Source: Candidatus Latescibacterota bacterium (lineage in GTDB: Bacteria > Latescibacterota > UBA2968 > UBA8231). Taken from it: a DNA stretch of 64,000 nt. The stretch is taken from assembly GCA_965219385.1 (NCBI GenBank), contig CBDCNM010000002.1, forward strand, positions 1,296,936 through 1,360,935, read 5' to 3'. Under the pieces are notes generated by a model. That model did not search any database and had not been told where the DNA came from. It saw only the letters and a program-made list of their open reading frames with translations. A program made the position numbers and the translations under genes. Positions 20,226 through 44,231 of the stretch are shown one piece after another (position 1 is the stretch's first letter; each line of letters starts with the position of its first letter).

Positions 20226-20406
20226 AACCACCTGTTGAAGGATTTACGGAACCTTGATTTCGACTTCGTCAAAATCCCAGTTAACCGCTTCCTTTACAAC
20301 AACTTACGGCTTAACCGATCACAAGTGCCTAATGCTGCCAGTCCGCTTTACTTTGGGTGACTAATACTGCGGACGGAGAAAGAGTCATGACCCAATCCTT
20401 CGAGAC

Positions 20407-20485
20407 TAACGTTATGCCGGTTTGCGAACCCGCGCAGCGGGTTGCCCGAAGGGCCGAATGGCCCGAAGCCGGGGGCACGATGTTA
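20407..20485 (-). repeat. attC-like site a (distal end)
   Basis: TAACGTT..GCGAACC..TGTTA, 79 bp. Confidence 0.88.
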
Positions 20486-20530
20486 TTGGATGTGCTAGCC
20501 GGGTTTGGATGCCACCAGGAAGCGCCGGTT

Positions 20531-21118
20531 TCATCCTGATGGCGGGAATATTCTGTAGACCAGCAACTCCAGGGTTGTTCCATCCGCCTTCTTCTGGGCC
20601 TCTCTCCCGAAGACTTCACCACCGAGAGCCTCCGGTATCCTTATGCTGGCTTGGTTGCGTCGATCAACTGGGTAGGTCAGGTATTTGTAAGCCAGATTAC
20701 TATCAGCCCACCGCTTTAAACCAACGATGGCTTCCTTGCCGTAACCATTTCCGTGCGCTCCCCTCTTGATCCATATTCCCAGTTCCGGCGTTTCGGGTCT
20801 CCCCTCTCCGTGAAGGCCGCAACAGCCAAGGAATTCTCCTGAATCACGTCGTGCAACGACTGCCTGATAGTTGTCTCCCGCCTTCATCCTCTCAACTGCG
20901 GCGTCGATGAAGGTGAATGTATCATCGATGATCTCACTTGGGCAGGGAGCCATGTACCGTGTGATTTCCGACGTAAACTCTCTGAATATGTCCTCGGCAT
21001 GTATGCGGGAGATTGAAGATAGTCTGAGTCTTTGGGTAGCTATCTCCAACGTCAGCCAGTCAATGTCCTGGCCCTGCTTTGCAGTGAATGTACTGGACTC
21101 GTTGCACGACATTGTCAT
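20531..21118 (-). CDS. Cassette: RimJ/RimL-type GNAT acetyltransferase
   Basis: TQRLRL, FLGCCGL, ELGIWI..HGNGYGKEA, N.ASIRIPEALG; start approximate. Confidence 0.85.
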   Translation of the reverse strand: MTMSCNESSTFTAKQGQDIDWLTLEIATQRLRLSSISRIHAEDIFREFTSEITRYMAPCPSEIIDDTFTFIDAAVERMKAGDNYQAVVARRDSGEFLGCCGLHGEGRPETPELGIWIKRGAHGNGYGKEAIVGLKRWADSNLAYKYLTYPVDRRNQASIRIPEALGGEVFGREAQKKADGTTLELLVYRIFPPSG

Positions 21119-21690
21119 TGCTGACTCCGAAATCCTCCAAATGGGCGCCCTGGGCTTCTTGACTGGCATGTCCAATAACGTCTTCCGGTTTGCGAACCCG
21201 GAGTGAAACGGAGAGTTGCCCGATAGGGCCAAGCAGCGTATGCCGCGCGGCGCAAAACCGCTGTGTTATGAGATGTGTGTCCCGAAATTCCCTCTATAGC
21301 GGAAACAGACGGAAATTTAAATCTGCTCTGTGCCTTGTTATTGGTTTCTTTCGAGAAGAGGCCGGCGCGTCTTAGAATGATTACAATCCCAATCCAGCCA
21401 ACTAACATGCATATTACTGCGAAGAGCAAAATTGAGAGTCGTATCGGACCCGGATCAGCAGCAAGAGTCGGAATGACCGGCCATAATCCTGGAAGCACTA
21501 GCAATCCGACGAATAGGGGGAGTAGGAGGATTTTGCTCTGCACCAGAACTACAATCCCAACTGAGATGCATATTGCTGCCGAGAGTATAATCAAGATCCC
21601 TGTCGGACTCAGATCTGCAGCAAAACCCAGCAAGCCAATCCCTACGTTTGACGCAAGCAATAAGACGAACAAAGAGACCTTACTCGGCAT
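21115..21690 (-). CDS. Cassette: hypothetical four-TM membrane protein (ORF reads through site b)
   Basis: Four hydrophobic segments; AGGAG upstream. Confidence 0.6.
   Translation of the reverse strand: MPSKVSLFVLLLASNVGIGLLGFAADLSPTGILIILSAAICISVGIVVLVQSKILLLPLFVGLLVLPGLWPVIPTLAADPGPIRLSILLFAVICMLVGWIGIVIILRRAGLFSKETNNKAQSRFKFPSVSAIEGISGHTSHNTAVLRRAAYAAWPYRATLRFTPGSQTGRRYWTCQSRSPGRPFGGFRSQQ
21176..21268 (-). repeat. attC-like site b
   Basis: TAACGTC-CGGTTTGCG..CGCAAAACCG-TGTTA, 93 bp. Confidence 0.88.
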
Positions 21691-21759
21691 GGGGATTCTC
21701 CTTAGTTGAGAGGTTCCGATTCCAAACGGAGTGGCTAGCTTTTTGCTTCACATGTCCTC

Positions 21760-21842
21760 TAACGTTTTCCGGTTTGCGAACCCCGAAGGGGTTTCCCGCA
21801 GGGCCAAGGCGCGTAGCGCCGTAGCGCAACACCGATGTGTTA
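21760..21842 (-). repeat. attC-like site c
   Basis: TAACGTT..GCGAACCCCGAAGGGG..TGTTA, 83 bp. Confidence 0.88.
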
Positions 21843-21877
21843 GCCGCCGGCCAGCGAACAGAACGTTATTCTTGTCT

Positions 21878-22277
21878 TTACCAACCGAAACTTTCAAAAA
21901 ACTGGCCTTTCTGATAGTTTTCGAGTGCCTGCCTGACATAAGGCACCATATTGGCGGGTAAATCGTGGATAGAATGCCAAGATAGGTCATCACATTTGTC
22001 TGGCTCGGCGTTCACGATGTCTCCGCTCCATCTGGAGACGGAAAGGAAGAATGACACCCGTTCATCCTCAGCCTTCCGGTGCATAACACCGACCACTTCG
22101 ATGTCCGAGGGCTGAATCTCAATACCTGCCTCCTCCTTCGCTTCCCTGATCGCCGCTGCCTTGACCTCCTCTTTGCCATCGATGTGCCCAGCAATCACGC
22201 TGTAGTTGCCATCCTCATATCCAGTATCGAAGCGTCTCAATAGCAGGATTTCATTGTTGTTGTTGGTTAGAAAAACA
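21878..22277 (-). pseudogene. Cassette: NUDIX hydrolase, 5' end truncated by ISL3
   Basis: Nudix box GHIDGKEEVKAAAIREAKEEAG, NAEPDKC; frame runs into the ISL3 IR. Confidence 0.85.
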
Positions 22278-23717
22278 GGCTCGTCAGTAGAATTCGTGGG
22301 TGAATTGTGGCTCGGGTAAATCGCCAAGCTGATGGAATGAAGCGATTTGGAGTGCCTTGAAGGTGCGGCATCCGAATGCTTTTCTCACGGTCAGATTCCA
22401 TTTCAGGTTCAAGCCCTCGACCATGGCGTTGTTGAACTGCTTTTTGGCCCTGAACCAATTGAGGATGAGCTCTCGATGACGGCGTAGCCTCTTGGCGATG
22501 TCTTTCATCGGTTCGATCTTGCTTCTCATCGTGCGGAAACACCAGCGGTTGAGGAATTTCTCAGCCCAGGCAGGGTAGGTGTAGTTCCAGAAGCGCTGGA
22601 AGTCCTCCTTGAGCAGGTAGGCTCTGACCGTCCGCAGGTTCATCTTCACTAGCTCGGACCGCTTCAAAGCCTGGGGGTCGCTGAGGTTCTCCTTGCGCTT
22701 CAGGAAGCACCAGCGGCTCTTGCTCAGGACGGGATCTTGGCCCTGTTCTTTGAGTCGGCGGGCCTCTTCGGCACGGACTTTGTCGAGGGCCTTGCTGAAG
22801 GGCTGCATGAGGTGAAAGCGGTCGAGAACGTGTACCGCCGCCGGCCGCCGCTGGTCAATGACGGTGAGGTAGGCTTTCCAGATATCAGAGCAGATGACGG
22901 CAATCGGGCCGAGGAAGCTCCTCGGCTCCTGCTCGCCGGCCGCTTCTTGCTTGCGCTGGTGCTCTTGCTCCAGTTCGGTAAAGCCGTCGTCCAGGGTCTT
23001 TATCGTCCGCTTTTCGCCCCTCCACAACAGGCGGCGGTGGTGAGTGTCGATCTGGTACAGCAAGGTCAGATAATGATGGCCTTTGCGATACTGGATTTCA
23101 TCCACGCCGAGGGCCGTGACCCGGTCGAGGCGGCGATGAGCGAGCCCCTATTCCACGACGTACTGGACGGAACGGTAGACTGGGTCCCAACGGGTCCGGA
23201 AGGAGCGCGCCCCCTCGATCCACGACCGCTTCTTGGCCCACGGTGCCAGGAAGCAGCGGTAGAGGTCGGTCAGGGGGTGCTTGCCCGTGCTCCAGGGGAC
23301 CTTCTCGACGACCACCCGGCCGCAGGCTTTGCAGGCCACCCGGCGCATGCGATACACCAGAAAGACCGGGAACCCCCAGAGCGGAACAAACTCGAACAGC
23401 CGTGCCTCGGTGGCCGTGTCATAGGTGGGGGACAACGGACCGCAGCCGCTGCACTCCGCCCTGGCGTTCTTTCGGGGCCTGAGGCTCACCATGATCCTGC
23501 CGTGTTCGTCAAAATGACCCCCCTCAAACACAAACCGCTTGAACTTCGTGCATCGGTTCAGTACTGTGATCAGGCGCATCATTCCCTCCAAAGTAGGTCG
23601 GGATCGGTATTGATGGACCGTCCCAACATACCGGGAATGATGCGCCGGTGCTATCCTCGGCCTCCTCTATGCCGTCGGCGAGCCGGCTCTTTCACCCACA
23701 GATTCTCCGGAGGAGCC
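22278..23717 (-). mobile_element. ISL3-family IS; transposase (22284-23591) broken by an in-frame TAG at 23148-23150
   Basis: 27-bp imperfect IRs starting GGCTC (22278-22304, 23691-23717; 22/27 match); GVDEI, CSDIW, LDRFH, EGLN motifs; no target duplication. Confidence 0.88.
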
Positions 23718-23792
23718 ATTATTTCTATTCGCAGGCTTGCAACAGTTCCAGAAGGTTGCGCCATACTCAGAACATTTCACAGGAGGAACTAA

Positions 23793-24038
<246 letters not shown>

Positions 24039-24093
24039 TGAAAGCTCGACAAGAGTAAGAGTTGATTGAATGAATTGGATTGGAGGAATAGGA

Positions 24094-24570
24094 ATGAAAC
24101 TACGACACCTGATGGGGATGTTAATGCTTTTGGCGATGACAGCCGCTCGCTCAGAACAGCAAGAAAACGCGACGGCACCAAAAACCGCCGCAACCGAGAC
24201 GGTGTACCTGAATGGCCGAATCTATACACAGGACAAAGATCTGCCTTGGGCCCAGTCAATCATCACGATAGGTGACAAAATCGTTTTTGTCGGCTCTACC
24301 CAGGATGCCTTGCAATACGCCGCCGGAGACAGCAGGCGCGTGGACTTGAAGGGGCAATTCGTGATACCAGGTATAATTGACGCACACACACCCCCCGGCT
24401 TGATTAGCATGTCGGGTGACCTGTCTGGGATAGATGCAGCCGCTGGAGAGAACGAAAAGCCTTCAAGACCGATAGGATGCCATCCAAGCCAAAGGAGGCG
24501 ACGCTAGCTTGGTTACAGCAGTACGCAGACGATCACCCGTTTGATCTCATGATCTTACAGGGGACCTGGA
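24094..24570 (+). pseudogene. N-terminal fragment of a YtcJ-like amidohydrolase
   Basis: Signal peptide, YLNGRIYT, IVFVGS, DLKGQFVIPGIIDAH; frameshifted and truncated. Confidence 0.7.
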
Positions 24571-24678
24571 AGGATTTCGGCGCGTTTCAGAGGTCAACCT
24601 GGTACTTCTGCCACCCGTCAGTCCTCCGTAGCAGCGCTACTGCGGAGGACTGACGCCCGAACATGCGCTATTACCTGA

Positions 24679-26928
<2,250 letters not shown>

Positions 26929-27198
26929 TCTCAGAATGTTGCGGTACGGGTCGTAGGCGCTGTAGAACGGCGCGTAGTAGTGGTCGTGCAGCGCCGTGCG
27001 GTTGTTGGTCCAGAACAGCTCGTCTTCGGGCAGGTTGAGCGCGTCCGTCAGGCTCATGGCGCCCAAGTAGCCGTAGCGGCGGCAGTACTCCTCGTGCATG
27101 GGGACGGCGAAGCGGTGCAGGTCGGCTAGGGCTTCGTCGTAAGTGATGGAGTAAACCCAGCGCTTGCCGTATTTCCATGGACAGATGCTCAGACTCAT
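26929..27198 (-). pseudogene. Fragment of a polysaccharide-deacetylase-like gene
   Basis: WKYGKRWVYSITYDE resembles a NodB-type N-terminal motif; short and running into katG. Confidence 0.4.
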
Positions 27199-27220
27199 GG
27201 CTGCTCATCTTTCATCTTAT

Positions 27221-27240
27221 AGAGCCTGGGCACGGTGTTA
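27221..27240 (-). repeat. Half attC-like site (right arm only)
   Basis: GCCTGGGCACGGTGTTA matches the right arms of sites g and l; left arm absent. Confidence 0.6.
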
Positions 27241-27304
27241 AGCGATTTCACGAGTACGCGAGTTGGTCCCGACCATGTCCTCCGACACGAGTTAGACGAA
27301 ATGC

Positions 27305-28099
27305 TCATGCCATCTCTGCCACCATCCACTGCATGGGCCGCCGCCGCATGACCCGTTTAAACGGGAGATTTCCGGGTTCAGCAAGGAAGCAGAGAATCTC
27401 ACCGGATGTGGAGGGCAGCATCATTGCCACATGGAGGCCGTCGCGCCAGGTGCACGGCCATTTCGGGGCGCCTATCACAACGAGGTCGCAGTTGGACTGT
27501 ACATGGCCATCGCAGATGAGCGGTTGCATCGTCGTGACAAACGAGATGTGTGATGGCCCGTCAGTGGTATCCTCGGCCAGACCGAACAGTTGGCGGACTC
27601 CTACCTGAACCGAGTGTCCCCGCCGGACATGCTCTTTCAGTTCCTCCAAATCGCCGTGTACGCGATTGCCATCGGCATCGTGTTCGTAGACCGTACGCCA
27701 GCGGTCGCAGATAAACCACCGATATATCCCGTACGGGTAGGCCTGGCTCTCATCCACGCGCACATCACGCCACATCCACTTCACGTGGCAGAAGGTTCCG
27801 GAATCGTCGTATTTGAAGATGCTGATGTATGGTTGCTGTATGGCTTGGCCGCGGTGTACATAGCTATGGTGGTGGCTCATGAGTCCTGCAAACGCGCCAC
27901 CCCCACCGGCATAAGTCTGCTGGAAATAAAGCGTTTCCTCGTACAGATCTGTGGTCATGTAAAGCCTGAGATCTGCGCCTCGGCGTACCGCTGCCGCCAA
28001 CTCGGACACCGCGCCATGGGATGAGGTCAGGTCCGTCTGCTGTTCAAGGGCAAGCGTCCAGTTGTGTCCCATTGTGCGTGTTTCCTTTCGCAGTGACAT
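27305..28099 (-). CDS. Probable cassette: hypothetical protein with two similar halves
   Basis: 264-aa ORF; GAVSELAAAVRRGADLRL and GDLEELKEHVRRGHSVQV are internally similar. Confidence 0.7.
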   Translation of the reverse strand: MSLRKETRTMGHNWTLALEQQTDLTSSHGAVSELAAAVRRGADLRLYMTTDLYEETLYFQQTYAGGGGAFAGLMSHHHSYVHRGQAIQQPYISIFKYDDSGTFCHVKWMWRDVRVDESQAYPYGIYRWFICDRWRTVYEHDADGNRVHGDLEELKEHVRRGHSVQVGVRQLFGLAEDTTDGPSHISFVTTMQPLICDGHVQSNCDLVVIGAPKWPCTWRDGLHVAMMLPSTSGEILCFLAEPGNLPFKRVMRRRPMQWMVAEMA

Positions 28100-28371
28100 G
28101 TCTAACTAATGAGTGGTGCATAGTCGCAAGCGCAACGAGCGGCCAGATCTAGCGAGGCGCTCACGCCGCCGGCTGTTCTTCGATGCCGTCGAGGATGATG
28201 TCGAGCTGGTCCTCGGGGTGGGTTTCGCGGCCTATAGGTTGATCTCTTTACGAGATGTATTTACGTTGATGAAACGGAGGTACCTCGAGTGTGTGTGCAT
28301 CCGGTCGACGAACCATTGGCGCGGGGCAGCTCGCACCGCGTGCTCCAGTCTCTCTGACTTCAGACACTGAA

Positions 28372-28519
28372 TTCTTCCAGTGCCGCAGCCAAACTCGAGG
28401 ACCGGTCCACCATACTCATTGGCTAGATCGAGGTAGAAGTCCACGTCCACCAGATCGTCTTTGACGCTGTATGCGGCGTCGTAATGCTTCGCTCCCGGAC
28501 TGTAGGAATCATCAATCAT
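28372..28519 (-). pseudogene. Cassette: truncated class I SAM methyltransferase
   Basis: DVDFYLDLA..GGPVLEFGCGTGRI then similarity is lost. Confidence 0.7.
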
Positions 28520-28561
28520 GGTTTGTTGTCCATCGTACTGTTAGAGTCAATCCATTTCAGG

Positions 28562-28652
28562 TAGGGTTCGCCGGTTTGCGAACCCCGAACTTGTCGAAGA
28601 GTTGCCGGAGGCTAAGCCGCCAAATGCGCCACAGAGTAACACCAACGTGTTA
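28562..28652 (-). repeat. attC-like site e (left core mutated to TAGG)
   Basis: CCGGTTTGCGAACCCCG..GTGTTA. Confidence 0.75.
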
Positions 28653-28662
28653 GGCATTGCGG

Positions 28663-29217
28663 CTATTTGTCAAATGGTAAGTACAGACTGCACCGGCACC
28701 CCAGGGCCTCCAGCCCTTTCTCATAGATCTCCTCGCACAGAGCGGCTTTTCCATCCATGTACGACTGGCGGTCATTGTCGTGCTCTTCAGCGAGTTGCCA
28801 TTTCAGGTTACTGAGTCTACGAGCATATTCGGGACTTAGTCTGAGGAAATCCCTGAAGACAAGATGCCGTTTCAAGGCTTCACCATACTTGTCACAAACG
28901 TACGTATGGTGGGCGGGTAAAGATTCTTTCAGTCCGCTATCCGACAGATCAAAAGCATCTCTTCCGGGAATACCCAGGTCACCTTCATGGAAATATCCGA
29001 TCTCTGCAAGCCGATCCTTCGTACTCTCGAAATCCTGTGGCTCAGTGACAATGTCAACGTCAATGATTGGCTTGGCGGTCATTCCGGCAACAGATGTGCT
29101 ACCGACATGCTCGAGGCTGCAATACCTTCCTGACAAAACAGAGTCAAAACGGTGTCGTAATTCTTCAAACCATGAGGGCCAGGTCGGATCATAGTGCTTT
29201 ACCAACGTAACTGACAT
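28663..29217 (-). CDS. Cassette: GrpB/UPF0157 family protein
   Basis: YDPTWP, EHVGSTSV.G..AKPIIDVD, HLVFRDFLR, Y..LK, Y..GK. Confidence 0.92.
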   Translation of the reverse strand: MSVTLVKHYDPTWPSWFEELRHRFDSVLSGRYCSLEHVGSTSVAGMTAKPIIDVDIVTEPQDFESTKDRLAEIGYFHEGDLGIPGRDAFDLSDSGLKESLPAHHTYVCDKYGEALKRHLVFRDFLRLSPEYARRLSNLKWQLAEEHDNDRQSYMDGKAALCEEIYEKGLEALGCRCSLYLPFDK

Positions 29218-29240
29218 GATTCAATTGACCGCGTTGCGCC

Positions 29241-29306
29241 TAACGTTCTGTGGGTTAATGAACTGGCGTAGCCGCCTGAAGGCGGCGCAGCATTAACCCG
29301 CTGTTA
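29241..29306 (-). repeat. attC-like site f (shortest, 66 bp)
   Basis: TAAC..GGGTTAATG..CATTAACCC..GTTA. Confidence 0.85.
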
Positions 29307-29335
29307 TCGGTCGTGGAAGCTCCGTGGCTGGTCGC

Positions 29336-29601
29336 CTACAGACGGGAAATGAGCTCCTCGTAACTAGCATGAGAGCCGATCCAGAACCAGACGATCAGTC
29401 TGCTCGCACACCCATGGCGCGGTAATCTCGTGTGATTCGGACAGCGTAGATCGGTCTCGTAGGGTGTATCTTCTTGAATCGCAAGCTCGGATGGTTCGGA
29501 TTTACCCGAAAACGGGCGTAAGCAACGGCGGCCTGAACTTGGACGTACTGGGGAAGGTCGCGTAGCGCTTCCCGAAAACGATGGGTTGTCCGGGATATCA
29601 T
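29336..29601 (-). pseudogene. Cassette: RelE/ParE-like toxin, frameshifted near 29400
   Basis: NPNHPSLRFKK..YAVRI..YRAMG, then IVWFWIGSHASYE in another frame. Confidence 0.8.
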
Positions 29602-35065: not shown

Positions 35066-35141
35066 TAACGTCTCAGTGCCCCCCGAACCGCGCAGCGGTT
35101 GGGCGAAGGCCCTTGTGGCCTGAGCCGGGGGCACGGTGTTA
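35066..35141 (-). repeat. attC-like site l (IS110 target)
   Basis: TAACGTC..GTGCCCCC-CGAACCGCGCAGCGGTT..GGGGGCAC-GGTGTTA. Confidence 0.88.
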
Positions 35142-35179
35142 GACGAAGGGCATTCCCGAATATCGACCTACGCCTTGGC

Positions 35180-35578
35180 CTAAACGAAAACTGAGGGTGA
35201 AACGCCAAATCGCTTGGACAAAGCACGTATCTGCCGAACGTTCAACTCCCGCCTCCCACACAGAATCTCTGAAACCACTCCTTGTGAACCCACCTCCGGC
35301 AAATCCGTCTGCCTCAATTCATGCTCCTCCATGAGAAATCGAAGGGATTCCGCTCCCTCCGTCTTGGGCATGGGATGGTGTTGTTCTTCCCAAGCATGGA
35401 CAACGGCGCCCAGCGTATCGAGCAGAGAATAAAGTGGATGCTGCTCATCCGTGCCCACTTCATCAACCAAGCTGTTGAGGCGCTCCAAGGCCAAATCGTA
35501 TTCCTGCTCGTTCTGAATCTTGAGTAGGGCACTCACTTGCGTCCATGATCGCTGAAGCTGTGGCGTAATGACACTCAT
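35180..35578 (-). CDS. higA: Cassette: HigA antitoxin (HTH)
   Basis: LRFLMEEHEL.Q.DLPEVGSQGVVSEIL.G.RELN..QI..LS.RF. Confidence 0.9.
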   Translation of the reverse strand: MSVITPQLQRSWTQVSALLKIQNEQEYDLALERLNSLVDEVGTDEQHPLYSLLDTLGAVVHAWEEQHHPMPKTEGAESLRFLMEEHELRQTDLPEVGSQGVVSEILCGRRELNVRQIRALSKRFGVSPSVFV

Positions 35579-35862
35579 GTGGTCCATCCTCCACGGTCGT
35601 AGGCTTGATGTGTAAGCACATGACGGATGTATACTTTGCCCCGATTGAAGTGAATAGAGACAATCAGGCGGTACTTGTTGCCGGCGATGTTAAACACGAC
35701 GAATTCTCCGACTTTATCGGCCGATGGAAAAGTGTGGCGCAAGGCCGCGAAACTGCTAAACTGAGTCTGCTGCATGATTTTGAACCAGCGACTCAGTGCC
35801 TTCTTACTGTCGGGATGCTGCGTCCAAAACACCCGGAGGGCTTTCCGTGAGATGACGTGCAT
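35575..35862 (-). CDS. higB: Cassette: HigB toxin
   Basis: MHVISRKAL, TFPSADKVG, VFNIAGNKYRLI, VLTH..YD; ATGA overlap with higA. Confidence 0.92.
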   Translation of the reverse strand: MHVISRKALRVFWTQHPDSKKALSRWFKIMQQTQFSSFAALRHTFPSADKVGEFVVFNIAGNKYRLIVSIHFNRGKVYIRHVLTHQAYDRGGWTT

Positions 35863-35871
35863 ATAGACAAA

Positions 35872-35897
35872 ATATCGCAAATTGCGATATATCGCAA
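35872..35897. promoter_or_regulatory. Probable HigA operator (overlapping palindromes)
   Basis: ATATCGCAA-A-TTGCGATAT overlapping TTGCGATATATCGCAA, just upstream of higB. Confidence 0.7.
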
Positions 35898-35953
35898 CTC
35901 TCCTCTGCTCCGCTGCCCATTGACCCGACCGAACGCCCTTACTGCCTTTCGGC

Positions 35954-36045
35954 TAACGTTCTTGTGTTTACGAACCCGAGCGAATGCGAGGGGTTGCCCG
36001 GCAGGGCCAAGGAGCGAGGCGACGCAGCGCAACACCGTGCTGTTA
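35954..36045 (-). repeat. attC-like site m
   Basis: TAACGTT..CGAACCC..GCAACACCGTGCTGTTA, 92 bp. Confidence 0.85.
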
Positions 36046-36079
36046 TGGGCCGTGGCACGCAATGGCCTTCATTGAAGGT

Positions 36080-36313
36080 TCAGGAGGTGGTAGGCGAAAC
36101 GTCTCTAACGTGTAAGATCTCACCCGCCAAGGGAGGACGTATTGATGAATCTTCCAGGGTCAGAACCGCGATCGTGGTGCCCTGAGTATCCACGAACTCT
36201 ACCTCCGATGCCTCGTCGTCCGCGTATCTATGCACCACCGTGCCCACATCCCCAGCCACCAGACCGTGCTCTACGATAGACTCCTCAAGAACCACCAGAT
36301 CCAATTCAGTCAT
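36080..36313 (-). CDS. Cassette: DUF4926 family protein
   Basis: ELDLVVL..GL.AGDVGTVV...EVEFVD..G.TIAVLTL. Confidence 0.85.
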   Translation of the reverse strand: MTELDLVVLEESIVEHGLVAGDVGTVVHRYADDEASEVEFVDTQGTTIAVLTLEDSSIRPPLAGEILHVRDVSPTTS

Positions 36314-36327
36314 TTCATCCTCCTTGA

Positions 36328-36661
36328 TCAGGCTGGATAGGCTGTCACCAGACGAGGCCGAGCGGAGCCAGGTTCAACAATCCAGACCGTCCGTATCCGA
36401 ACACTCGACCCTGATGGGGTTTTCACACGACCATCCACAACATACTTGGTACCATGGTGTGTCTGCATAACTTCGAAGACCTGCTCATTGCGCGCGATGG
36501 GATGCTAAATCAGCTTCCAGAACAGAGGGATCCTCTTGTCGATACCCAACACCACGGAAGAATCTCGCCTTTGCTCGACCTACGGCATGTACATCGGAAA
36601 GCAGATATTGCTCGACTTTCTCGGTTGGTATCGCCGCATTTTTTCCGTTAGGCAACTTCAT
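36328..36661 (-). pseudogene. Cassette: DUF6883-like putative toxin, frameshifted near 36500
   Basis: MKLPN...K...YLL...H..G..KARFF, then GTKYVVDG..TPSG....RTVWI......PRLVTAYPA in another frame. Confidence 0.72.
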
Positions 36662-36688
36662 AGAATCCAATTCTTATACCATGGCACA

Positions 36689-36781
36689 TAACGTTATGTC
36701 GGTTTGCGAACCCCGAGCTTGTCGAGGGGTTGCCGCAGGCCAAGCCGCCCACAGGGCAGCGCAGCGCAAAACGATGTGTTA
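36689..36781 (-). repeat. attC-like site n
   Basis: TAACGTT..GGTTTGCGAACCCC..CGCAAAACGATGTGTTA, 93 bp. Confidence 0.88.
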
Positions 36782-36819
36782 TGTGCTGTGCCTTGCTCCC
36801 TGTGGGGGTGATATCAATC

Positions 36820-37611
36820 CTAGATAGCTATGCACGTTATGGTATCGTGTGCTCGTCCAGTACAGTCACAGTGCACATATTCAATGCCATCGATTACTAT
36901 TCGCCGATTCCTTGGATACCTCTGGATTAAATCACCGCCTCGGTAGAACCGTCCGTCATATCGCCGAAATAGTACAGTTCGCCCACCGGTCTCAACGAAC
37001 GCCTCTACCAATTCTCCGCCGTTCGGCTCTGAAAGATCTACATCCAATACTCGGAGACAGTGGTGCGTGTTGCCGCCGATTGTTACATCGTATACGCCTG
37101 CTCCAATGCCCTCCCCGGCGGCGGTCTTGTACGAACCGTCATGTTGACGCCTGTAGCGACCGTCATCGAAGAGTCTGCGACTTGACGGTTCGCCCCAGTC
37201 GTCTTCGAATCCGGCATCGGTGCTTGAGTAGAACACCTTCGTATTGTCCTCGTTCTTGATTACGCCAAGCCATCTTACCTCGTCATCGTCGATTACGCCG
37301 TACATATACCCGGGGTCGAATTCGACAGACCAGTGGCAACAATTAGACCATTGATCCAGCCGAATCTCAATGCAGTCCGAGTCATGGAGCCTCGCGCGGC
37401 CCGTAGCGGCCATTTCCGTAACAGCAACAAGCTCTCGCGTCAGCGAATCATAGGCTGCCCAAGTGGTCCTTTCGCCAAGTGTTGGGACGGCAAACCACCA
37501 CTGCAACTCCAGGCAATCAATCTCATCGATTCTCTCTGAGCTCTCGACGATTCTGATGTCCGGTCGCGTAAGCGGGAACGGATGAGTGGCGCTTCCATCG
37601 GTTGTGCACAT
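36820..37611 (-). CDS. Cassette: hypothetical protein
   Basis: ORF with GGAGG RBS, bounded by sites n and o. Confidence 0.7.
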   Translation of the reverse strand: MCTTDGSATHPFPLTRPDIRIVESSERIDEIDCLELQWWFAVPTLGERTTWAAYDSLTRELVAVTEMAATGRARLHDSDCIEIRLDQWSNCCHWSVEFDPGYMYGVIDDDEVRWLGVIKNEDNTKVFYSSTDAGFEDDWGEPSSRRLFDDGRYRRQHDGSYKTAAGEGIGAGVYDVTIGGNTHHCLRVLDVDLSEPNGGELVEAFVETGGRTVLFRRYDGRFYRGGDLIQRYPRNRRIVIDGIEYVHCDCTGRAHDTITCIAI

Positions 37612-37712
37612 CACTTCGCCTCCTCCAGTCCGGGCAGGACTACGAAAATCCAGTAATACCGTGTGAGTGACCCGAAATTGACCTGACAGGTAATAACCTA
37701 GGGCATGGCACA

Positions 37713-37790
37713 TAACGTTTTCCGGTTTGCGAACCCCGAAGGGGTTGCCCGATAGGGCCGTATGGCCCGTAGCCGGGCACGGGCGTGTTA
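37713..37790 (-). repeat. attC-like site o
   Basis: TAACGTTTTCCGGTTTGCGAACCCCGAAGGGGTT..GTGTTA; contains the stop codon of the upstream gene. Confidence 0.88.
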
Positions 37791-38672
37791 GCGGAAGTCG
37801 CCCCCCGGGTTGTCACTCATTCTTCTGATCTCCCTAAGATACTCTGTGACATTCCGATCAAGCTCAAGAGGATAGGCGCAGCCTAAATGTTCTCCAACCT
37901 TGGATGCCAGCCTCCCGAACACTTCGGCTGTTTTGAACATAGCGTTCCAGTTCTCTTCAAGGTCAGCCCCCGCGAATGTCGCCTCGATATCCGACCAAAG
38001 GTCGGATTCCACCTGTTTCTTGAACCATCTGCCAAAGGCACCCGGATTGGACTTCCAGCTGTTCTGCATACCAATGTACCAGGCGATCGCAGTTCTCAGA
38101 TAGTGATGATGTAGAGAGTCGTCAAGCATATACTTGGCAAAGAATAACTCGTCCCGGAATAGGTACTTGGCTACGTAAGTTATGTTCCACCAGAAGTGGT
38201 GAACAAGCTCCTCGTATTCCCCTTCAGTTGGCTGTTTTGTCAAATACTGAGTGTAGGTCGGCGATACTGCTCCTTCGGCAAGGCCATCCTTGTCGAGAAG
38301 GACTTGATAGCCCATGTCGTTCGTATAGCCTCCATGTTCTCTGCTATCCTCTTCCATGGCTTCCGACAACATGATGTGGAAATCGATCCTTGGGACGTCC
38401 TTGAATATCACAAGGCGCCAAACGTCGTTCTCGTCCCCAATAACAGGTTTATAGGGTTCGCGGACTAAGACTTCCCCAAATATCCTTAGCCACTCGTCCC
38501 CCTCCAGGAAAGGCTGCAGGTCTTCCACAAATAGTTCGATGTCGTAGTCAGACAACGTGTCAATAGGAACGCTGGGATTTGCACGAGTACTAGTAAGGAT
38601 TACTGCTCGAACGTTCTCGTTCCCCTTGGCCCACTCCGTCACTTCTTTCGCCATGTTCTTCGTGGTATTCAT
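37788..38672 (-). CDS. Cassette: aminoglycoside 6-adenylyltransferase (AadK/ANT(6)) family protein
   Basis: VRAVILTSTRAN..D.LSDYDIE, RIDF, VLLDKDG, FWW...YVAK.L.RDEL. Confidence 0.85.
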   Translation of the reverse strand: MNTTKNMAKEVTEWAKGNENVRAVILTSTRANPSVPIDTLSDYDIELFVEDLQPFLEGDEWLRIFGEVLVREPYKPVIGDENDVWRLVIFKDVPRIDFHIMLSEAMEEDSREHGGYTNDMGYQVLLDKDGLAEGAVSPTYTQYLTKQPTEGEYEELVHHFWWNITYVAKYLFRDELFFAKYMLDDSLHHHYLRTAIAWYIGMQNSWKSNPGAFGRWFKKQVESDLWSDIEATFAGADLEENWNAMFKTAEVFGRLASKVGEHLGCAYPLELDRNVTEYLREIRRMSDNPGGDFR

Positions 38673-38712
38673 CGAGTCCTATTAGGATTCAACAGCGTCC
38701 GATATCGAGCGA

Positions 38713-38780
38713 TTTCCGCTAACTGCTTTTAGCCGCCGTGCTCATTCTCTCATAAGACGCCATATGGTGAGGCGTTAGCG
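38713..38780 (-). other. Atypical internal junction (attI-like core or aberrant short attC)
   Basis: TAACTGCTT identical to the attI core; left flank matches the right flank of site o at 14/15. Confidence 0.6.
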
Positions 38781-38790
38781 TCAGGTTCAT

Positions 38791-39303
38791 TCAAAGGACC
38801 ATACCGTACCGGATCTCTCGCAGTTCAAAACCCTCTCGCTTTTCAGTCTTCGTTAAACCCTCGGTTTTGAATCCGAATTTCTCGTAGAAGGATCTGGCTC
38901 TTTGATTGGTTTCCAAAACCCAGACTTTTACGGAGCCAAAGCCATCTCTCTCCAGGGCTGTCAAAGCGTTTTCTATCAGTGTTCTGCCGATTCCGCGATT
39001 CCAGAAATCTTCCAATACGTAGATCGAATATACCTCTCCAGTCAGGAGTCTGTTTTCCTCTTCACCTCGGAGAGGACCAAAGCTCGAGAATCCAACGATT
39101 CTCACTTCATCTTCTGCTACCAGAACACTACGCATCTGATCCTTCAGAATTTGAGTCCACGCCAGCTCCCGTTTCGCAACCGACAGCCCTTCGAGATACG
39201 AATCAGGAATCTGTCCTCGATAAGTGGCCTGCCAGGAACGAACATGGACTTCAGCGATACCCCTCACATCATCGGAATGGGCACTTCTGAATATTCTGGA
39301 CAC
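38791..39303 (-). CDS. Cassette: GNAT acetyltransferase
   Basis: HVRSWQATY.G, GEVYSIYV, GIGRTL, WVLETNQRARSFYEKFGF. Confidence 0.92.
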   Translation of the reverse strand: MSRIFRSAHSDDVRGIAEVHVRSWQATYRGQIPDSYLEGLSVAKRELAWTQILKDQMRSVLVAEDEVRIVGFSSFGPLRGEEENRLLTGEVYSIYVLEDFWNRGIGRTLIENALTALERDGFGSVKVWVLETNQRARSFYEKFGFKTEGLTKTEKREGFELREIRYGMVL

Positions 39304-39360
39304 AAAAAGCTATCTCCTAAATCGGCCGGCGCCTTCTCTCGTGCTGACTTGCATGACCGA

Positions 39361-39454
39361 TAACGTTCATCCGTTACCGAACCCCCGGAGCGTAGCGAAG
39401 GGGGTTGCCCGCAGGGCCAAGGCGCGTATGCGCCGCAGCGGGAACGGGGTGTTA
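39361..39454 (-). repeat. attC-like site p
   Basis: TAACGTT..CCGTTACCGAACCCC..GGGAACGGGGTGTTA, 94 bp. Confidence 0.88.
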
Positions 39455-39531
39455 AAGGACGTGGGATACTATCTCCCCTCAAGGTGTATCTTGAAACCAA
39501 ATTCCTATAACTGTCCCAATTCATGCGCTTG

Positions 39532-40308
39532 TTAGCGCTGTTGCGTACATTCTGGTATATCGATCAGCAACATGCCTTCTTCTTTTAAAGGATATTCAAC
39601 CAGAATGTCACCTGATTTTGAGACAAATAAAGCACCACCGAAGTAACCGCCCATTTCGTCGTCTGTCAACTGATTGACCAACATCATATTGACGCCGGCC
39701 TCTCGCGCTCGCCCGGCATAAAGGTACTTTTCCTGTCTATGCCACATAGCCATATCGGCCACATCTTCATCAAAACTGCGAGCCATAGGAAACAACAACC
39801 AGTCTGGATTTAATGCTTTCACACGAGATAAGCAGGTATTATTGAATAGATCGCCACAAAGCAAAAAGGCAGCGGTTCCAATCGGTGTAGAGGCGATTGG
39901 CACCTCGTCTCCCTGGGCATAAATCGGAAAAGGACAAGGCCGATTATGCCAGTGATGCCAACACGGATCGATACGACGATATCGCATACGAATGACACCA
40001 TCAGGACCAATTAGAATAGCCGTGTCATAGAGGCGATCCTCATTTCGTTCAAAAAGCCCCGTTGCCAGCCATATTCGGCATCTGGCTGCAAGCTGGCAAA
40101 GTGCCTCTGAAGCAGCTCTGGGAATAGATTGACCAAGAGACAGATCATAATCGGGGTTCCCGGTGTTCACTAATCCTGTAATCGCTGCTTCGGAAAAAAC
40201 AACCATCTCTGCATTAACATTTGCGGCATCCTCAGTCATTTGCATCAAGCCGGAGAGAGTATCCTGCCGATTTAATTTTACTTGGGGGACACCAAGAGCC
40301 ACTTTCAC
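39532..40308 (-). CDS. Cassette: carbon-nitrogen hydrolase (nitrilase superfamily)
   Basis: VVFSEAAITG, LYDTAILIGPDG, YRR, LLCGD; catalytic Lys position appears to be Arg. Confidence 0.85.
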   Translation of the reverse strand: MKVALGVPQVKLNRQDTLSGLMQMTEDAANVNAEMVVFSEAAITGLVNTGNPDYDLSLGQSIPRAASEALCQLAARCRIWLATGLFERNEDRLYDTAILIGPDGVIRMRYRRIDPCWHHWHNRPCPFPIYAQGDEVPIASTPIGTAAFLLCGDLFNNTCLSRVKALNPDWLLFPMARSFDEDVADMAMWHRQEKYLYAGRAREAGVNMMLVNQLTDDEMGGYFGGALFVSKSGDILVEYPLKEEGMLLIDIPECTQQR

Positions 40309-40434
40309 GCTATATGGTTCCTCTTAAGCTTGAACAGCCCAAACTCATTATTAAACTGCGAAAATTCAGTATCTCTCTTTTAAATTTGGAGGCATACTGA
40401 ATAGATATCTGTCTCACCTTCATCCCATGTCCTG

Positions 40435-40511
40435 TAACGTTTCGCCGTGCTCGAACCGCGAAGCGGTTGGGCGAAGGGCCGTATGGCCCGTAGCCGGGCA
40501 CGGTCGTGTTA
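40435..40511 (-). repeat. attC-like site q
   Basis: TAACGTT..CCGTGCTCGAACCGCGAAGCGGTT..CGGGCACGG..GTGTTA. Confidence 0.88.
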
Positions 40512-40523
40512 AGAGAAGTGCGT

Positions 40524-41234
40524 TCAATCCAATCGTTCGAGGACGGGCTTTAGATCAAGCAAAGATCGGATAACAAGTCCCGAACTCACATCCACGTGAC
40601 CGATTCGGTCGATGAGCACGGAAATCATATTCGCTCGTCTCGCACCCATAATGTCCCACCTTGGATTATCTCCGACAAACAGGCATTCCTCTGGTTTGCA
40701 TCCAAAATGATCCAATGCCCGGCGAAACATAGGTTGGGCGGGCTTCCGCCACCCTACATCCGAACAAAAGATAGCCACCTCGCATCGCGTCGAAAGGCCA
40801 TGTCGCCGCAGTTCTTCAAACCAGGGCTCGCTCGGTGAACCCCAAGGACAGTTCGACAGGATTCCTACGCGGCAGCCATCCGCCAGATGCGCATCTAGAG
40901 CCGGAAGGGTGTCTTCATAGATCTTGGCAATAGAAAGGATTGGCGTGAGGAAGGCACGACAGATCGGCAGCCACTCTTCCTCCGAAACGCAAGGTGCGAC
41001 CGCAAAGATACGACCAAGCCTCTTGTGGAGTGGGCGAACGCGACTGTTTTTGGCTTCGTAGTTCTCAGTCGCGACACCGCGCTCGATCTCAGAATCCGAA
41101 GGCAAATCGTGTCCCGAACGCTCCAGTGCCTCTTTGGCTGCGTGAATTCCTGCCCGCAGCAAAGGAGGAAACTCTTCCCTGCGATAGTACTGGACAAGGG
41201 TGTCGCCAAGGTCAAACAGAAGAACTGGTCTCAA
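40524..41234 (-). CDS. Cassette: HAD-family hydrolase
   Basis: FDLGDTL, ILSN, GWRKP, FVGDNPRWDI.GA. Confidence 0.9.
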   Translation of the reverse strand: MRPVLLFDLGDTLVQYYRREEFPPLLRAGIHAAKEALERSGHDLPSDSEIERGVATENYEAKNSRVRPLHKRLGRIFAVAPCVSEEEWLPICRAFLTPILSIAKIYEDTLPALDAHLADGCRVGILSNCPWGSPSEPWFEELRRHGLSTRCEVAIFCSDVGWRKPAQPMFRRALDHFGCKPEECLFVGDNPRWDIMGARRANMISVLIDRIGHVDVSSGLVIRSLLDLKPVLERLD

Positions 41235-41271
41235 ACCTGAAACTCCTACTCGTCTCTTAAAGCATTTCGCT

Positions 41272-41356
41272 TAACGTCTCGCCGGTTTGCGAACCCGCGA
41301 AGCGGTTGCCGAAGGCCAAGGCGGCGTAGCCGCCGCAGCGCAACACCGTGCTGTTA
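41272..41356 (-). repeat. attC-like site r
   Basis: TAACGTC..CGGTTTGCGAACC..CGCAACACCG..TGTTA, 85 bp. Confidence 0.88.
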
Positions 41357-41453
41357 CACGATTGCGGCTCTGCAACGCACGAAATAAACACGCAAACGCC
41401 TATGATGGCTGGGCGATTGCCTTGGCAATCAAGAGTGTCGGTACAATTCTCTC

Positions 41454-42164
41454 TCAACACCTCTCCACCGATTTTGCTACAGAACCAAGCGGTTCAGAGA
41501 TCTCGGCAAGTTGGAATCCACTTCTGATCAAGGTATTGAAGTACGTTGAAAGCGTTCGGTGGTGGCTGCCAAGCGTGCCACACATCCCGATTCCATCGGA
41601 GTACCATTTGCCTTCAAGGCCATACCGTGAAACACGCAATGCCTTGAAATTTCCCGCTTCGTCCAACTCCTCCTGTGGATTCTCTGCATTGAACGGAGTG
41701 AAAAAGCACGGATGTAGAATTGTGAAGATGAACTTGCCATTGTCGAGAAGTATCCGACGGACATTGAACAATGTTGCCGTTAGGTCAGGGATATCCATGA
41801 GTGTCATGTTGCAAATAACAGCATCCATGCTGGCGTCGGACACCTGATTCAGCGATTGTGCATCGTCCAGGACATACGTGATGCCGTGGTCATCAGAATG
41901 CTCCTTTGCATGCCGCAACAGCATCTGTGAAATGTCCACACCTGTAACGAGAGCGCCCCGACTCGCTAGGATGCGAGACAGATACCCTTCACCGCATCCC
42001 AAGTCACATACACTGATTCCTTGGACATCGCCCAGCATAGTCAGCATGATTTCTACCGAGGGCTGGATACGCCTATCCCTATCCGGAACATTCCTATCCA
42101 GCCAGTTGAGATAGAAATCACCTGCCTTGTCATATTCAGATTCTGTCAACTCATCGATGCGCAT
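41454..42164 (-). CDS. Cassette: class I SAM methyltransferase
   Basis: DLGCGEGYLSR, GVDIS, LMDIPDL, HPCF, HRTLSTY. Confidence 0.9.
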   Translation of the reverse strand: MRIDELTESEYDKAGDFYLNWLDRNVPDRDRRIQPSVEIMLTMLGDVQGISVCDLGCGEGYLSRILASRGALVTGVDISQMLLRHAKEHSDDHGITYVLDDAQSLNQVSDASMDAVICNMTLMDIPDLTATLFNVRRILLDNGKFIFTILHPCFFTPFNAENPQEELDEAGNFKALRVSRYGLEGKWYSDGIGMCGTLGSHHRTLSTYFNTLIRSGFQLAEISEPLGSVAKSVERC

Positions 42165-42227
42165 AGTCTCACTCCCGTTGGGGCATGGGATCTAAGAATG
42201 ATGCAAACCCGTCACGCCGCTTTCGTG

Positions 42228-42310
42228 TAACGTTACTGCGGGCTGCGAACTTGCCGCAGGCAAGTTAGGTCGGAGGCCCGAAAGGGCCGGAGCCGTAGCC
42301 CGACGTGTTA
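42228..42310 (-). repeat. attC-like site s (first cassette)
   Basis: TAACGTT..CGGGCTGCG..CGTAGCCCG..GTGTTA, 83 bp. Confidence 0.88.
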
Positions 42311-42337
42311 CCTGCCGTTAGCCTCTCCGAGTGCGGA

Positions 42338-43030
42338 TCACTTCACGTCCTTGAATCTGTAGAGAGGGCGTGGAGCATTTCTATTTAGGTCGATTCCAGG
42401 AGCCCCAACGGACTCCCAACCAGAGGTGCAGACTGGCACTCTCACGTCTGTTGGCGGTTCCCATTCGGGCCAAGGATCACAGAACGGCAACTCCCCGGAC
42501 TCCATGGCCTGAATTGCCTTCCGCCCTTCCTTATAGAAGCTCTCCGTTTCCTCTGGCAGGTATACGCCTGTCTCCAGTCGGTCTGATATTCCCACCTCAT
42601 CCTTCCAGTGCCACGTGAAATCTGGTCGTACAATGACATCGAGGGCATTGTCAGTCGTATCGAATCCAATCTCAGTTCGCTGAAACGACGACTCAAGGTC
42701 GATCTTCCACCCCTTGAATCTCCCATCGGGCCAATTGAAATGATCCTCGTAGTATGAGGGGACACCTGTCCCAGCATCAAAGAACAGCAGGACGGCGTGA
42801 GCTCGCCCAGGAAACATGAACCGCAGTACGTTCATCCTGCTTGTCCAGGGGTTCAACCGCGCTCGGGCAAGTCGATCGAAACGTTCGACAATAGTGCCCG
42901 CCGGCTGGCACAGAATCACAAGATCACTCTTATCGCAGATCACAACGTGTGGGCGGCCCCACGAAATCCAATCGTGGTGGCCCACATAACGGTGAATAAC
43001 CAGGTCATTTGGTTGCCAATGATCACACAT
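42338..43030 (-). CDS. First cassette: DUF402-family protein
   Basis: GWKIDLE.....GFDTTDNALDVIVRPD..W.WKDE. Confidence 0.75.
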   Translation of the reverse strand: MCDHWQPNDLVIHRYVGHHDWISWGRPHVVICDKSDLVILCQPAGTIVERFDRLARARLNPWTSRMNVLRFMFPGRAHAVLLFFDAGTGVPSYYEDHFNWPDGRFKGWKIDLESSFQRTEIGFDTTDNALDVIVRPDFTWHWKDEVGISDRLETGVYLPEETESFYKEGRKAIQAMESGELPFCDPWPEWEPPTDVRVPVCTSGWESVGAPGIDLNRNAPRPLYRFKDVK

Positions 43031-43092
43031 GATCCGATCCTACGTGATATTCACAGAATTTGGCATCGCCTGGTTATCGTGTTTTTGGGCAA

Positions 43093-43132
43093 TAGCAGGT
43101 AACTGCTTGTACCCGAACAATTGGTTCGGGTA
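43093..43132 (-). other. attI-like site (core TAAC 43100-43103) with adjacent palindrome
   Basis: T-AGCAGG-TAAC complements the right flank of site s (11/13) but has no attC body; overlaps TACCCGAAC-AATTG-GTTCGGGTA. Confidence 0.78.
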
Positions 43133-43162
43133 ATGGCCGCTACGTGTCACTTATCTGAAACA

Positions 43163-43191
43163 AAGGTACGTATTTGTGTAAACAGTCGCAA
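43163..43191 (-). promoter_or_regulatory. Candidate cassette promoter (Pc-like)
   Basis: TTGCGA-N17-TACCTT on the minus strand, ~60 bp upstream of attI and facing the array. Confidence 0.4.
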
Positions 43192-43287
43192 CCAATACCG
43201 CGAGGCTGGGATATCCTGCGTAATCCTTTGCGGCAGTTTGAGATAGCACGGTTCTCCTGAGGTCAGCGCACCTGGCATGAATTTTTC

Positions 43288-43319
43288 TGGTAAGGGATAC
43301 ACTGTGGTAAGGGATACAC
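43288..43319. repeat. Direct repeat TGGTAAGGGATACAC x2 (17-bp period) upstream of the recombinase
   Basis: Identical copies at 43288-43302 and 43305-43319. Confidence 0.85.
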
Positions 43320-43344
43320 CTGTTTGCTTGGGAGAAAATGCGCC

Positions 43345-44231
43345 ATGCGGCGATATCGAAGACACCCGGATCTGACGAATGATGAGCTGATTACCCTCAA
43401 CCGGGTCGAGTCGGAGCTGAAGCTGAGGGGGTACGCCAGGAAAACGCAGAAATCCTACATGGGATGCTGCCGCCGTTTCCTGCAATGGAAACGGCGCTAT
43501 CGCGGTGACCGGCAGGCCGAAGTGAGATCGCATCTGGAGGAGCTCGTCGACCAGGGCGTGAGCCGCTCCGCCTTCAACATCGCATACAGTGCTCTGCGCT
43601 TTCTCTACGGGGAAGTCCTGAAGCAGCCGGCCCCCCTAAAAGGACTGCGAAGGCCACGGGGCGGCCGGCCGCTGCCGGTGATTCTGGGCCAGCGGGAAGT
43701 GCTGCGGCTGCTCGATGCGCTCGGCAATCCGAAACACCGGGTCCTCTTTGCCCTGCTGTATGCCGGGGGGCTGCGAGTGGGCGAGGTCGTGCGTCTCAAG
43801 GTGAGCGACATCGACAGCGAACGCATGTTGATCCGGGTGCAACAAGGCAAGGGGCGAAAGGATCGGTATACCTTGCTTCCCAAGGCGATTCTGGAGGATC
43901 TTCGGTCCTACTGGAAGGCGTACCGGCCGTCGACGTGGCTGTTCCCCGGGGCGCGGGCCGGCCGGCATCTCACGGAACGGACTGTGCAGAAGGTGTTCTC
44001 CCGGGCTGTGGCCGCTGCGGGCATCCGGAAGCGGGTAACGGTCCACACGCTGAGACACAGCTTTGCAACGCACCTGCTGGAGGGGGGCACCGATCTCGCT
44101 ACATACAGGAACTCCTCGGGCACACGAGCTCGAGATCGACGGAAATCTACACGCATGTGAGGCGGAAGGATCTCGTGCGGATCAAGAGTCCACTCGACGC
44201 GTTGTTGGACCACACCGGTCGATCTGGTTAG
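43345..44231 (+). pseudogene. Integron-integrase-like tyrosine recombinase lacking the IntI I2 insertion; 1-nt frameshift at ~44097
   Basis: SAM_4-like N-terminus, LP.IL, LLYAGGLR, GKGRKDR, HTLRHSFATHLLE; RYIQELLGH...TEIYTHV...SPLD lies in another frame ending 44231. Confidence 0.88.

Follow-up and report, generated by a model that had tools for sequence, protein, structure and literature searches.

Can gene cassettes be captured and shuffled by a tyrosine recombinase that lacks the I2 insertion, the segment used to define integron integrases (IntI) and to explain recombination of single-stranded hairpins? The question is raised by a 64,000-nucleotide stretch of a Candidatus Latescibacterota genome (hereafter the window; its source genome, G000, is 94% complete), in which sites resembling the attC sites of integrons extend from 20404 to 42313, an attI-like crossover lies at 43097-43103 and a short tyrosine recombinase gene occupies 43345-44231 on the plus strand. 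A sequence-only reading of the window had proposed a possible distinct class of cassette-shuffling system. The proposal is supported by the analysis presented here, in which three refutation tests were run and none refuted it. We consider it likely that the locus is an integron-type platform of the sedentary kind, operated by a recombinase without I2 that would bind the folded bottom strand of each site and leave the junction to be resolved by replication. The logic of such a platform is documented here at the level of sequence: where the units begin and end, where the crossover falls, the attI, the shuffling, the linkage of enzyme and array, and the shape of the sites.

A cassette array with a divergent recombinase and an attI site

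The array contains 17 attC-like hairpin sites of 72-100 bp, in agreement with the number of full sites counted in the sequence-only reading. The TAAC...GTTA pair is intact in 15 of them, the R' box having decayed in the sites beginning at 28559 and 31714, and the segment 38717-38780 is a fusion that contains no attC. A generic hairpin detector untrained on these sites recovered 12 sites in 20400-43100, compared with 0-2 in each of 12 Markov-resampled copies. The sites show the anatomy of canonical attC, with R''/R' cores, an L stem and a variable terminal structure. Cassettes lie on the minus strand throughout and are mostly of a single gene, and the GC content of 28550-43100 is 0.53 against 0.64 and 0.56 in the flanks. 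The earlier description of some 20 co-oriented cassettes of named families stands as regards orientation and families, for which Pfam and NCBIfam give support (two GNATs, three methyltransferases, two NUDIX proteins, GrpB, HAD, nitrilase and a HigB-type pair), but the number is nearer 18, the array is interrupted and the ANT(6)-like gene matches NCBIfam models below their curated cut-offs.

The attI site (43097-43133, minus strand) comprises an R box, GTTACCT, at 43097-43103 and a conserved 9-bp inverted repeat at about 43111-43133. The R'' box of the first cassette is exactly complementary to this R box. When eight upstream regions of related recombinase genes were aligned, similarity began exactly at the TAAC near 43100 and extended towards the recombinase, while the cassette side was unrelated, which bears out the attI-like junction at 43100 and the divergent recombinase that had been noticed by eye. 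This conserved attI lies about 245 bp from the short recombinase gene. Within the inverted repeat, 93% of alignment cells are paired and there are seven double changes, a level reached by none of 500 shuffles, although relatedness of the sequences inflates this control. The repeat may be an extra recombinase site, a regulator site or a hairpin, and the word CGAAC is common to it and to the attC sites. We do not regard the palindrome CGAAC-N5-GTTCG as a LexA box, as it is not found upstream of lexA or of either recA; it occurs six times in G000, three of these at attI copies. The two full-length recA genes are about 36 kb apart (G000:C2:1271112 and G000:C2:1234667). A conserved non-coding stretch (43134-43344) presumably carries divergent promoters, and a sigma-70 scan of 43000-43700 for Pc and divergent promoters returned no match. 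Two further attI copies without a recombinase head short arrays in the same genome (G000:C1:488388 and G000:C2:4422802). The first of these arrays appears to open with the same cassette as the integron of genome G026, and at the head of another array, at C2:1619384-1621124, there seems to be a copy of the other attI type, likewise an orphan.

A recombinase without the I2 insertion

The absence of an insertion before the WLFP motif, noted at the outset, was upheld: the motif is present, and a second block that IntI proteins carry after it is missing as well. In comparison with six IntI proteins 40-44 residues are lacking, and the distance from the catalytic-lysine motif to HxxRHSF is 73 residues, against 113-117 in the six IntI and 79-80 in two Xer proteins. 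Alignment with IntI, Xer and IS91-associated recombinases confirmed that I2 is absent and showed that the 73-residue spacing is common to the IS91 partners. The integron integrase model TIGR02249 is matched by the window gene at positions 2-179 and 235-315 and left unmatched at about 180-235, the I2 region, and neither the window protein nor its intact relatives reach the cut-off of 265 bits. The frameshifted window copy scores 180.8 bits, 12 of 12 full-length relatives score 198.8-240.8, and intact relatives score 227-241. This model gives the recombinase its highest NCBIfam score, and the closest solved structure by sequence is IntI4. The cut-offs of the XerC and XerD models (TIGR02224 and TIGR02225) are not reached by the recombinase; some longer relatives pass that of archaeal XerA (NF040815). 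A structure model of an intact relative (P0005, pLDDT 83.6) contains no extra helix between those at residues 180-193 and 211-225. Its top structural match is XerA (4a8e; Z 23.8, rmsd 10.5, 257 residues aligned), and V. cholerae IntI4 (2a3v) is matched with Z 20.5, rmsd 3.9 and 38% identity over 251 residues.

The catalytic R, K, HxxR, H and Y are conserved in 62 relatives. They are also present in the window, where they are split over two frames by a one-base frameshift near 44095-44100 that moves the region of the catalytic tyrosine into another frame. Contigs from four runs in three studies cross the frameshift without a gap, and the shortened protein is likewise encoded in a second assembly; one of these may be the window's own source. 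An assembly error was rejected as the cause of the frameshift on these grounds. Joints in the same contigs that would suggest other cassette orders have sides of about 30 letters only and are not counted as evidence. A second short recombinase in the same genome (G000:C1:888232) is full-length and 49% identical, although some near-invariant positions are changed. In its locus (L010:2122-5500, from G000:C1:888121 on) the cassettes lie downstream and co-oriented, with two sites of their own. Given that the sites are of the same type, the divergent and co-oriented layouts of G000 appear to draw on one cassette pool.

The phylogeny was inferred from 62 of 177 aligned rows (LG+G4) after removal of sparse columns including those of I2, with a FastTree analysis of all rows besides; L027 was counted as IntI in the tree from the length of its insertion. 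IntI proteins form one clade of 14 rows (100/99) and Xer proteins a separate clade (100/100). The window clade (100/99) falls within a group (99/96) that also contains other short recombinases, a Bacteroidota-like group and IS91 partners, so placing it outside IntI on the available sequences. Joining the window clade to IntI of the same family, the sole alternative topology tested, was rejected (p-AU 0.0003). The deep branches are weak and would be compatible with sister status to IntI, with early loss of I2 or with a separate origin of the short clade.

Hairpin sites without docked bases

In a canonical attC, an extrahelical base stands in the L'' box and a T lies 6-8 nt further on. We compared 83 window-type sites with 28 sites beside canonical IntI (32 detections for the L stem), the latter being detector output of which some are false. 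The window-type sites have a G.T pair after the R box on the bottom strand in 79 of 83 cases (12 of 28 canonical) and a bulge or asymmetric loop on the R' arm in 67 (3 of 28). An unbroken L stem at an offset of +2 to +4 is present in 51 of 83; the untrained detector gave 34 of 57, and the 32 canonical detections include none. Conversely, a single bulge at position 8-9 is found in seven window-type and 12 canonical sites, and a T at positions 15-17 in none and 13, respectively; both features of canonical sites were described by Bouvier et al. (PMC2727003). The stronger statement that the sites have no extrahelical base at all does not hold, since 39 of 83 carry a single bulge, variable in nature, within the spacer at position 4. 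The arms of the L stem covary, with 67% of positions paired against 48% after swapping of arms (reached in 0 of 5000 trials). CGNAG words form stable DNA mini-hairpins; they occur 204 times on the bottom strand and 22 times on the top. At canonical-IntI loci, including some within the same family, the sites are of the classical form. In G000, a strict pattern for canonical-type attC gave no match, though without a positive control, and a looser pattern gave 220 noisy matches and no convincing array. With an enzyme that lacks I2 and sites that lack the docked bases, both halves of the same contact appear to be missing.

Cassettes have moved as units

If cassettes were once circles cut at G|TT, the R' box before a cassette should pair with the R'' box behind the same cassette and not with the R'' of its own site. 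Cassette ends were complementary in this manner at 36 of 45 variable bases in the 15 undamaged units, eight of which are perfect, compared with 15 of 51 bases within sites; the GNAT unit next to the fused site, the 316-residue unit next to IS110 and the interrupted stretch were omitted. Permutation of the window cassette ends gave a mean of 12.1, and 0 of 100000 permutations reached 36. Among relatives, 108 of 123 end bases pair in 41 units, against 47 within sites. That R' before a cassette pairs with R'' behind it, and not with the R'' of the present site, argues that the units were once mobile circles.

The same conclusion is reached from shared cassettes. A copy of the nitrilase cassette, 93% identical and bounded by TAAC on either side, stands first behind the orphan attI at G000:C2:4422799. 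Four window cassettes recur in a different order in G056, a genome of another family, at 92-98% identity, and most ends of these alignments fall at the crossover. All mapped crossovers are located in R'. The source genome contains 42 sites of the window type in 12 clusters. As read from the sequences, the mobile unit is the whole cassette, cut at G|TT and at one time circular; cassettes enter at the attI next to the recombinase and have been reshuffled and exchanged between genomes.

The short recombinase heads similar arrays in related genomes

We searched 61 related genomes and found a homologue at E<=1e-30 in 16. These genome counts are descriptive and are not tests, as kin are not independent, and the site model (HMM) used to detect association was trained on the window sites alone and is bound to this lineage. 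Eight loci carry a gene 72-85% identical to the window recombinase, and six of these have divergent upstream arrays of 4, 5, 5, 6, 15 and 20 sites; of the other two, one is at the end of its contig, and in the other the gene is partial and the sites are more distant. The expectation that homologues would head similar arrays is therefore borne out in six of the eight close-clade loci. Among nine other loci of 36-57% identity, four have 1-13 co-oriented downstream sites, three are at contig edges and two have none. The window HMM found no sites in 80 mixed loci, and a retrained HMM found none in 18 regions around the canonical IntI of relatives. Canonical IntI proteins over the cut-off are present in 11 of the 61 genomes, and neither G000 nor the seven other window-clade genomes are among them, so that no canonical enzyme elsewhere in G000 was found that might process the sites. 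An exact site pattern is present in 16 of the 61 genomes; it occurs in none of the seven that carry only canonical IntI, and all seven genomes with multiple such sites also carry the short recombinase.

Beyond this lineage, short recombinases in Bacillota, in a deltaproteobacterium and on metagenome contigs are followed by a few sites of this offset according to the generic detector, which is thin evidence when taken alone. Broader scans of related loci yielded for the most part short contigs with Xer, IntI or IS91 recombinases, which served well as controls but poorly for testing the association. A plasmid collection contained 487 matching records below 60% identity, and a phage collection a single match. 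In locus L246 (G090:C1:1439000-1458999), seven window-type sites are separated by 3-9 kb from a short recombinase that is present in multiple copies and is followed by a 395-residue open reading frame; this pair is probably an IS91 element near an array.

A possible mechanism and its alternatives

In the mechanism that we favour, the recombinase would bind the folded bottom strand of each site. In place of extrahelical bases docked by I2, the enzyme may recognise the R box together with the G.T wobble and a bulge of 3-4 nt by which the L stem is offset. One strand would be exchanged at the R box and the junction resolved by replication, and the enlarged bulge might, as a guess, bend the site and keep the L-box subunits from cutting. 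Such a route is plausible because, in sites without extrahelical bases, the bulge of the central spacer becomes essential and still sets polarity (Bouvier et al., PMC2727003).

Several observations weigh against this reading. To judge from its reading frames, the window copy is a pseudogene, and for this reason the window array either no longer moves or depends on an enzyme acting in trans, of which the second short recombinase is an example. In the clade as a whole only four of nine copies appear intact, those of G002, G010, G018, G026 and the window appearing broken; the broken copies other than that of the window could be assembly errors. Activity of the enzyme on attI and attC is a prediction. 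I2 has been reported to block exchange of the second strand (PMC7790495, PMC4792948), a role that some other feature would have to fill here. A bulge at the canonical position is kept in a few sites (7 of 83 at position 9). A large share of the short relatives are partners of IS91 transposases, as seen in 39 of the 74 downstream reading frames that were scanned. Among 16 more distant loci outside the training set (16 of 21 places not examined earlier), HMM sites were found in seven and not in six, and three are at contig ends. Finally, six of the 16 genomes with the exact site pattern have no match to the short recombinase, with one site each and no IntI either.

It is possible, though unlikely, that single-strand recombination here needs a helper in place of I2, which might be a host factor or a HARP-like module encoded apart from the recombinase and acting in trans. 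Longer relatives of the recombinase (P0022, P0035, P0052) do have an N-terminal extension of about 90 residues, and weak HARP matches were obtained in three of five (E 0.02-0.04). The members of the window clade, of 293-314 residues, have neither the extension nor upstream room for one, and yet head arrays of up to 20 sites, because of which a HARP-like domain seems not to be required in cis.

A very unlikely alternative is that the short enzyme acts on double-stranded sites in the manner of XerC/D, with two strand exchanges, and that the hairpins are incidental, for example as RNA signals. The lack of I2 and the resemblance of the model to XerA would fit such an enzyme, and IntI1 itself keeps a double-strand pathway for attI x attI recombination (PMC4792948). 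However, partner sites share the TAAC/GTTA cores and nothing more, their spacers differing from one another and from attI. The covariation of the L-stem arms, the strand bias of the mini-hairpin words and the confinement of crossovers to R' also speak against it.

Little credence can be given to the view that the arrays are built or served by a canonical IntI elsewhere, with the short recombinase as a bystander. It draws on the broken window gene, on the four genomes that have both enzymes (G008, G021, G023, G029) and on the report that IntI1 tolerates loss of the extrahelical bases with a 6-fold drop (PMC2727003). Against it stand the conserved attI next to the short gene, the absence of IntI over the cut-off from all eight window-clade genomes, the co-occurrence of the exact site pattern with the short enzyme and not with IntI alone, and the classical sites of same-family IntI arrays, in whose 18 regions the window-type HMM found none.

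That the enzyme is a canonical IntI with a recent loss of I2, as its best NCBIfam score and best solved sequence match might imply, is the least credible proposal, given that IntI remains one clade apart from that of the window with the I2 columns dropped and that joining the two was rejected; I2 may, however, have been lost long ago in the common ancestor of all the short recombinases.

Comparison with known systems

The favoured platform resembles sedentary chromosomal integrons, such as that of V. cholerae IntI4, in the layout of divergent recombinase, attI and array, in the G|TT crossover with chimeric R boxes, and in its bottom-strand hairpins, toxin-antitoxin cassettes, attC-targeting insertion sequences (IS) and orphan arrays. 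It differs from them in the lack of I2, the 3-4 nt bulge, the general absence of an L-box extrahelical base, an attI with an inverted repeat and a recombinase outside the IntI clade. The IS91-associated integron-like recombinases belong to the same subgroup, share the lack of I2, the 73-residue spacing and the joint 99/96 clade, but precede a Y2 transposase and not a cassette array. No IS91 (Y2) transposase was found beside the window recombinase, whose downstream gene is DMFA2_C-like. An integron-like subgroup in which the insertion is absent from IS91 and IS3 partners has been described (PMC8138268; Smyshlyaev et al., 10.1101/542381). XerC/XerD and archaeal XerA are alike in having no insertion, but XerC/XerD form a clade of their own and have no arrays; G000 carries other tyrosine recombinases besides those described here.

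The rAID-1 elements of Bacteroidales (Ross et al., 10.1101/471110) also comprise an array of genes headed by a XerD-like tyrosine recombinase, and the repeats between the genes have been likened to those of integrons. As described, they are defined by GC content and by >44% identity to BF9343_RS08045, and their low-GC genes, with immunity cargo, lie downstream and co-oriented, unlike the window array, which is upstream and divergent of its recombinase. By analogy, rAID-1 may be regarded as a partial precedent for an array headed by such an enzyme.

Cassette content and interruptions of the array

From attI onwards, and on the minus strand unless noted, the first cassette encodes a DUF402/FomD-like protein (42338-43030) and is followed by sites at 42225-42313, 41269-41359, 40432-40514 and 39358-39457, between which lie genes for a SAM methyltransferase (41454-42164), a HAD hydrolase (40524-41234) and a carbon-nitrogen hydrolase, the nitrilase (39532-40308). 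The next cassette, a GNAT (38791-39303), ends at the fused junction (38717-38734), where an R' box and attI-like spacer are joined straight to the R'' of the GNAT cassette. The equivalent place in G056 has a full site, and the junction looks as if recombination had removed a whole attC. Beyond it are the ANT(6)-like nucleotidyltransferase gene (37788-38672), a site at 37710-37793, a 297-residue reading frame without a match in Pfam/NCBIfam family scans (36820-37713), a site at 36686-36784, a two-gene cassette of a split upstream reading frame and DUF4926 (36080-36670), a site at 35951-36048 and the HigB-type toxin-antitoxin cassette (35180-35880).

The following site (35063-35144) is broken in its R' box by an IS110-family element on the plus strand (33804-35066), which has the dinucleotide CT at both ends. 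Its transposase (34045-35040) passes the IS110 model, with the longer non-coding part upstream. An empty counterpart of the insertion is found in G056 (L112 near 8617), and a 108-bp copy of the left end of the element lies in another array (G000:C2:756681-756784). Elements of the IS1111 type that target attC are known (PMC11187229).

On the far side of the element are a 316-residue gene without a family match, whose cassette is 98% identical in G056 (32773-33723), a site at 32625-32712, a SAM methyltransferase gene found also in a second array of G000 and in G056 (31823-32572), the decayed site at 31714-31796, a further SAM methyltransferase gene (30892-31569), a site at 30663-30747, a NUDIX gene (30014-30628), a site at 29918-29996, a two-gene cassette that is toxin-antitoxin-like by eye and has no family match (29336-29864), a site at 29238-29309, a GrpB gene (28663-29217) and the second decayed site (28559-28655). 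A non-cassette interruption (22278-28550) then contains ISL3 at about 22278-23718, katG on the plus strand (24691-26928), a half attC near 27236 and a 264-residue reading frame (27305-28112). The 5' end of katG is duplicated, with a 293-bp copy of 95% identity 1003 bp upstream, enclosing a fragment of another gene. The 264-residue frame has no family match; in G015 and G026, DNA 90% identical to it is located at a distance of 12-14 kb from the recombinase gene, and the ends of that match are not at clear attC sites. The last part of the array has a NUDIX gene overlapping the ISL3 end (21878-22327), a site at 21757-21845, a hydrophobic reading frame without family match (21115-21690) that reads through its own attC (21173-21271), a GNAT gene whose true start is probably downstream of the listed one (20531-21232) and the final site (20404-20488). 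A search against Rfam matched none of the array sites and returned only a tmRNA gene (9245-9602), which lies in a stretch of lower GC content (about 7000-10000) that is possibly an island.

Implications for integron biology

The protein family itself is already known, as integron-like tyrosine recombinases including those associated with IS91. In the literature searched, which covered few subscription journals, we found no description of integrons without I2. Cury et al. (2016; PMC4889954) reported 21 recombinases without the domain near attC and judged that they were not IntI, a conclusion that the present finding contradicts. Archaeal IntI proteins keep the domain (10.1101/2022.02.06.479319). 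The role and origin of I2 are treated in PMC7790495 and PMC4792948, the latter (Escudero et al.) likening the question of how I2 and attC arose to that of the chicken and the egg; further integron literature was consulted (PMC9024848, PMC9892861, PMC7370490). Our results suggest that integron surveys may undercount gene-capture platforms, here with a cargo predicted to include an ANT(6)-like gene and GNATs. A natural pair of enzyme and site without I2 and without docked bases makes the origin of I2 and attC testable with intact genes. We offer it as a serious, though tentative, possibility that there is a second, widespread class of integron, in which the recombinase would process folded single-stranded attC sites through a bulge-and-wobble code without I2 or any added domain. 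This class might descend from the I2-less stock that also gave rise to the IS91 recombinases, in which case cassette capture would have arisen before or apart from I2 and the minimal enzyme may be the living missing intermediate.

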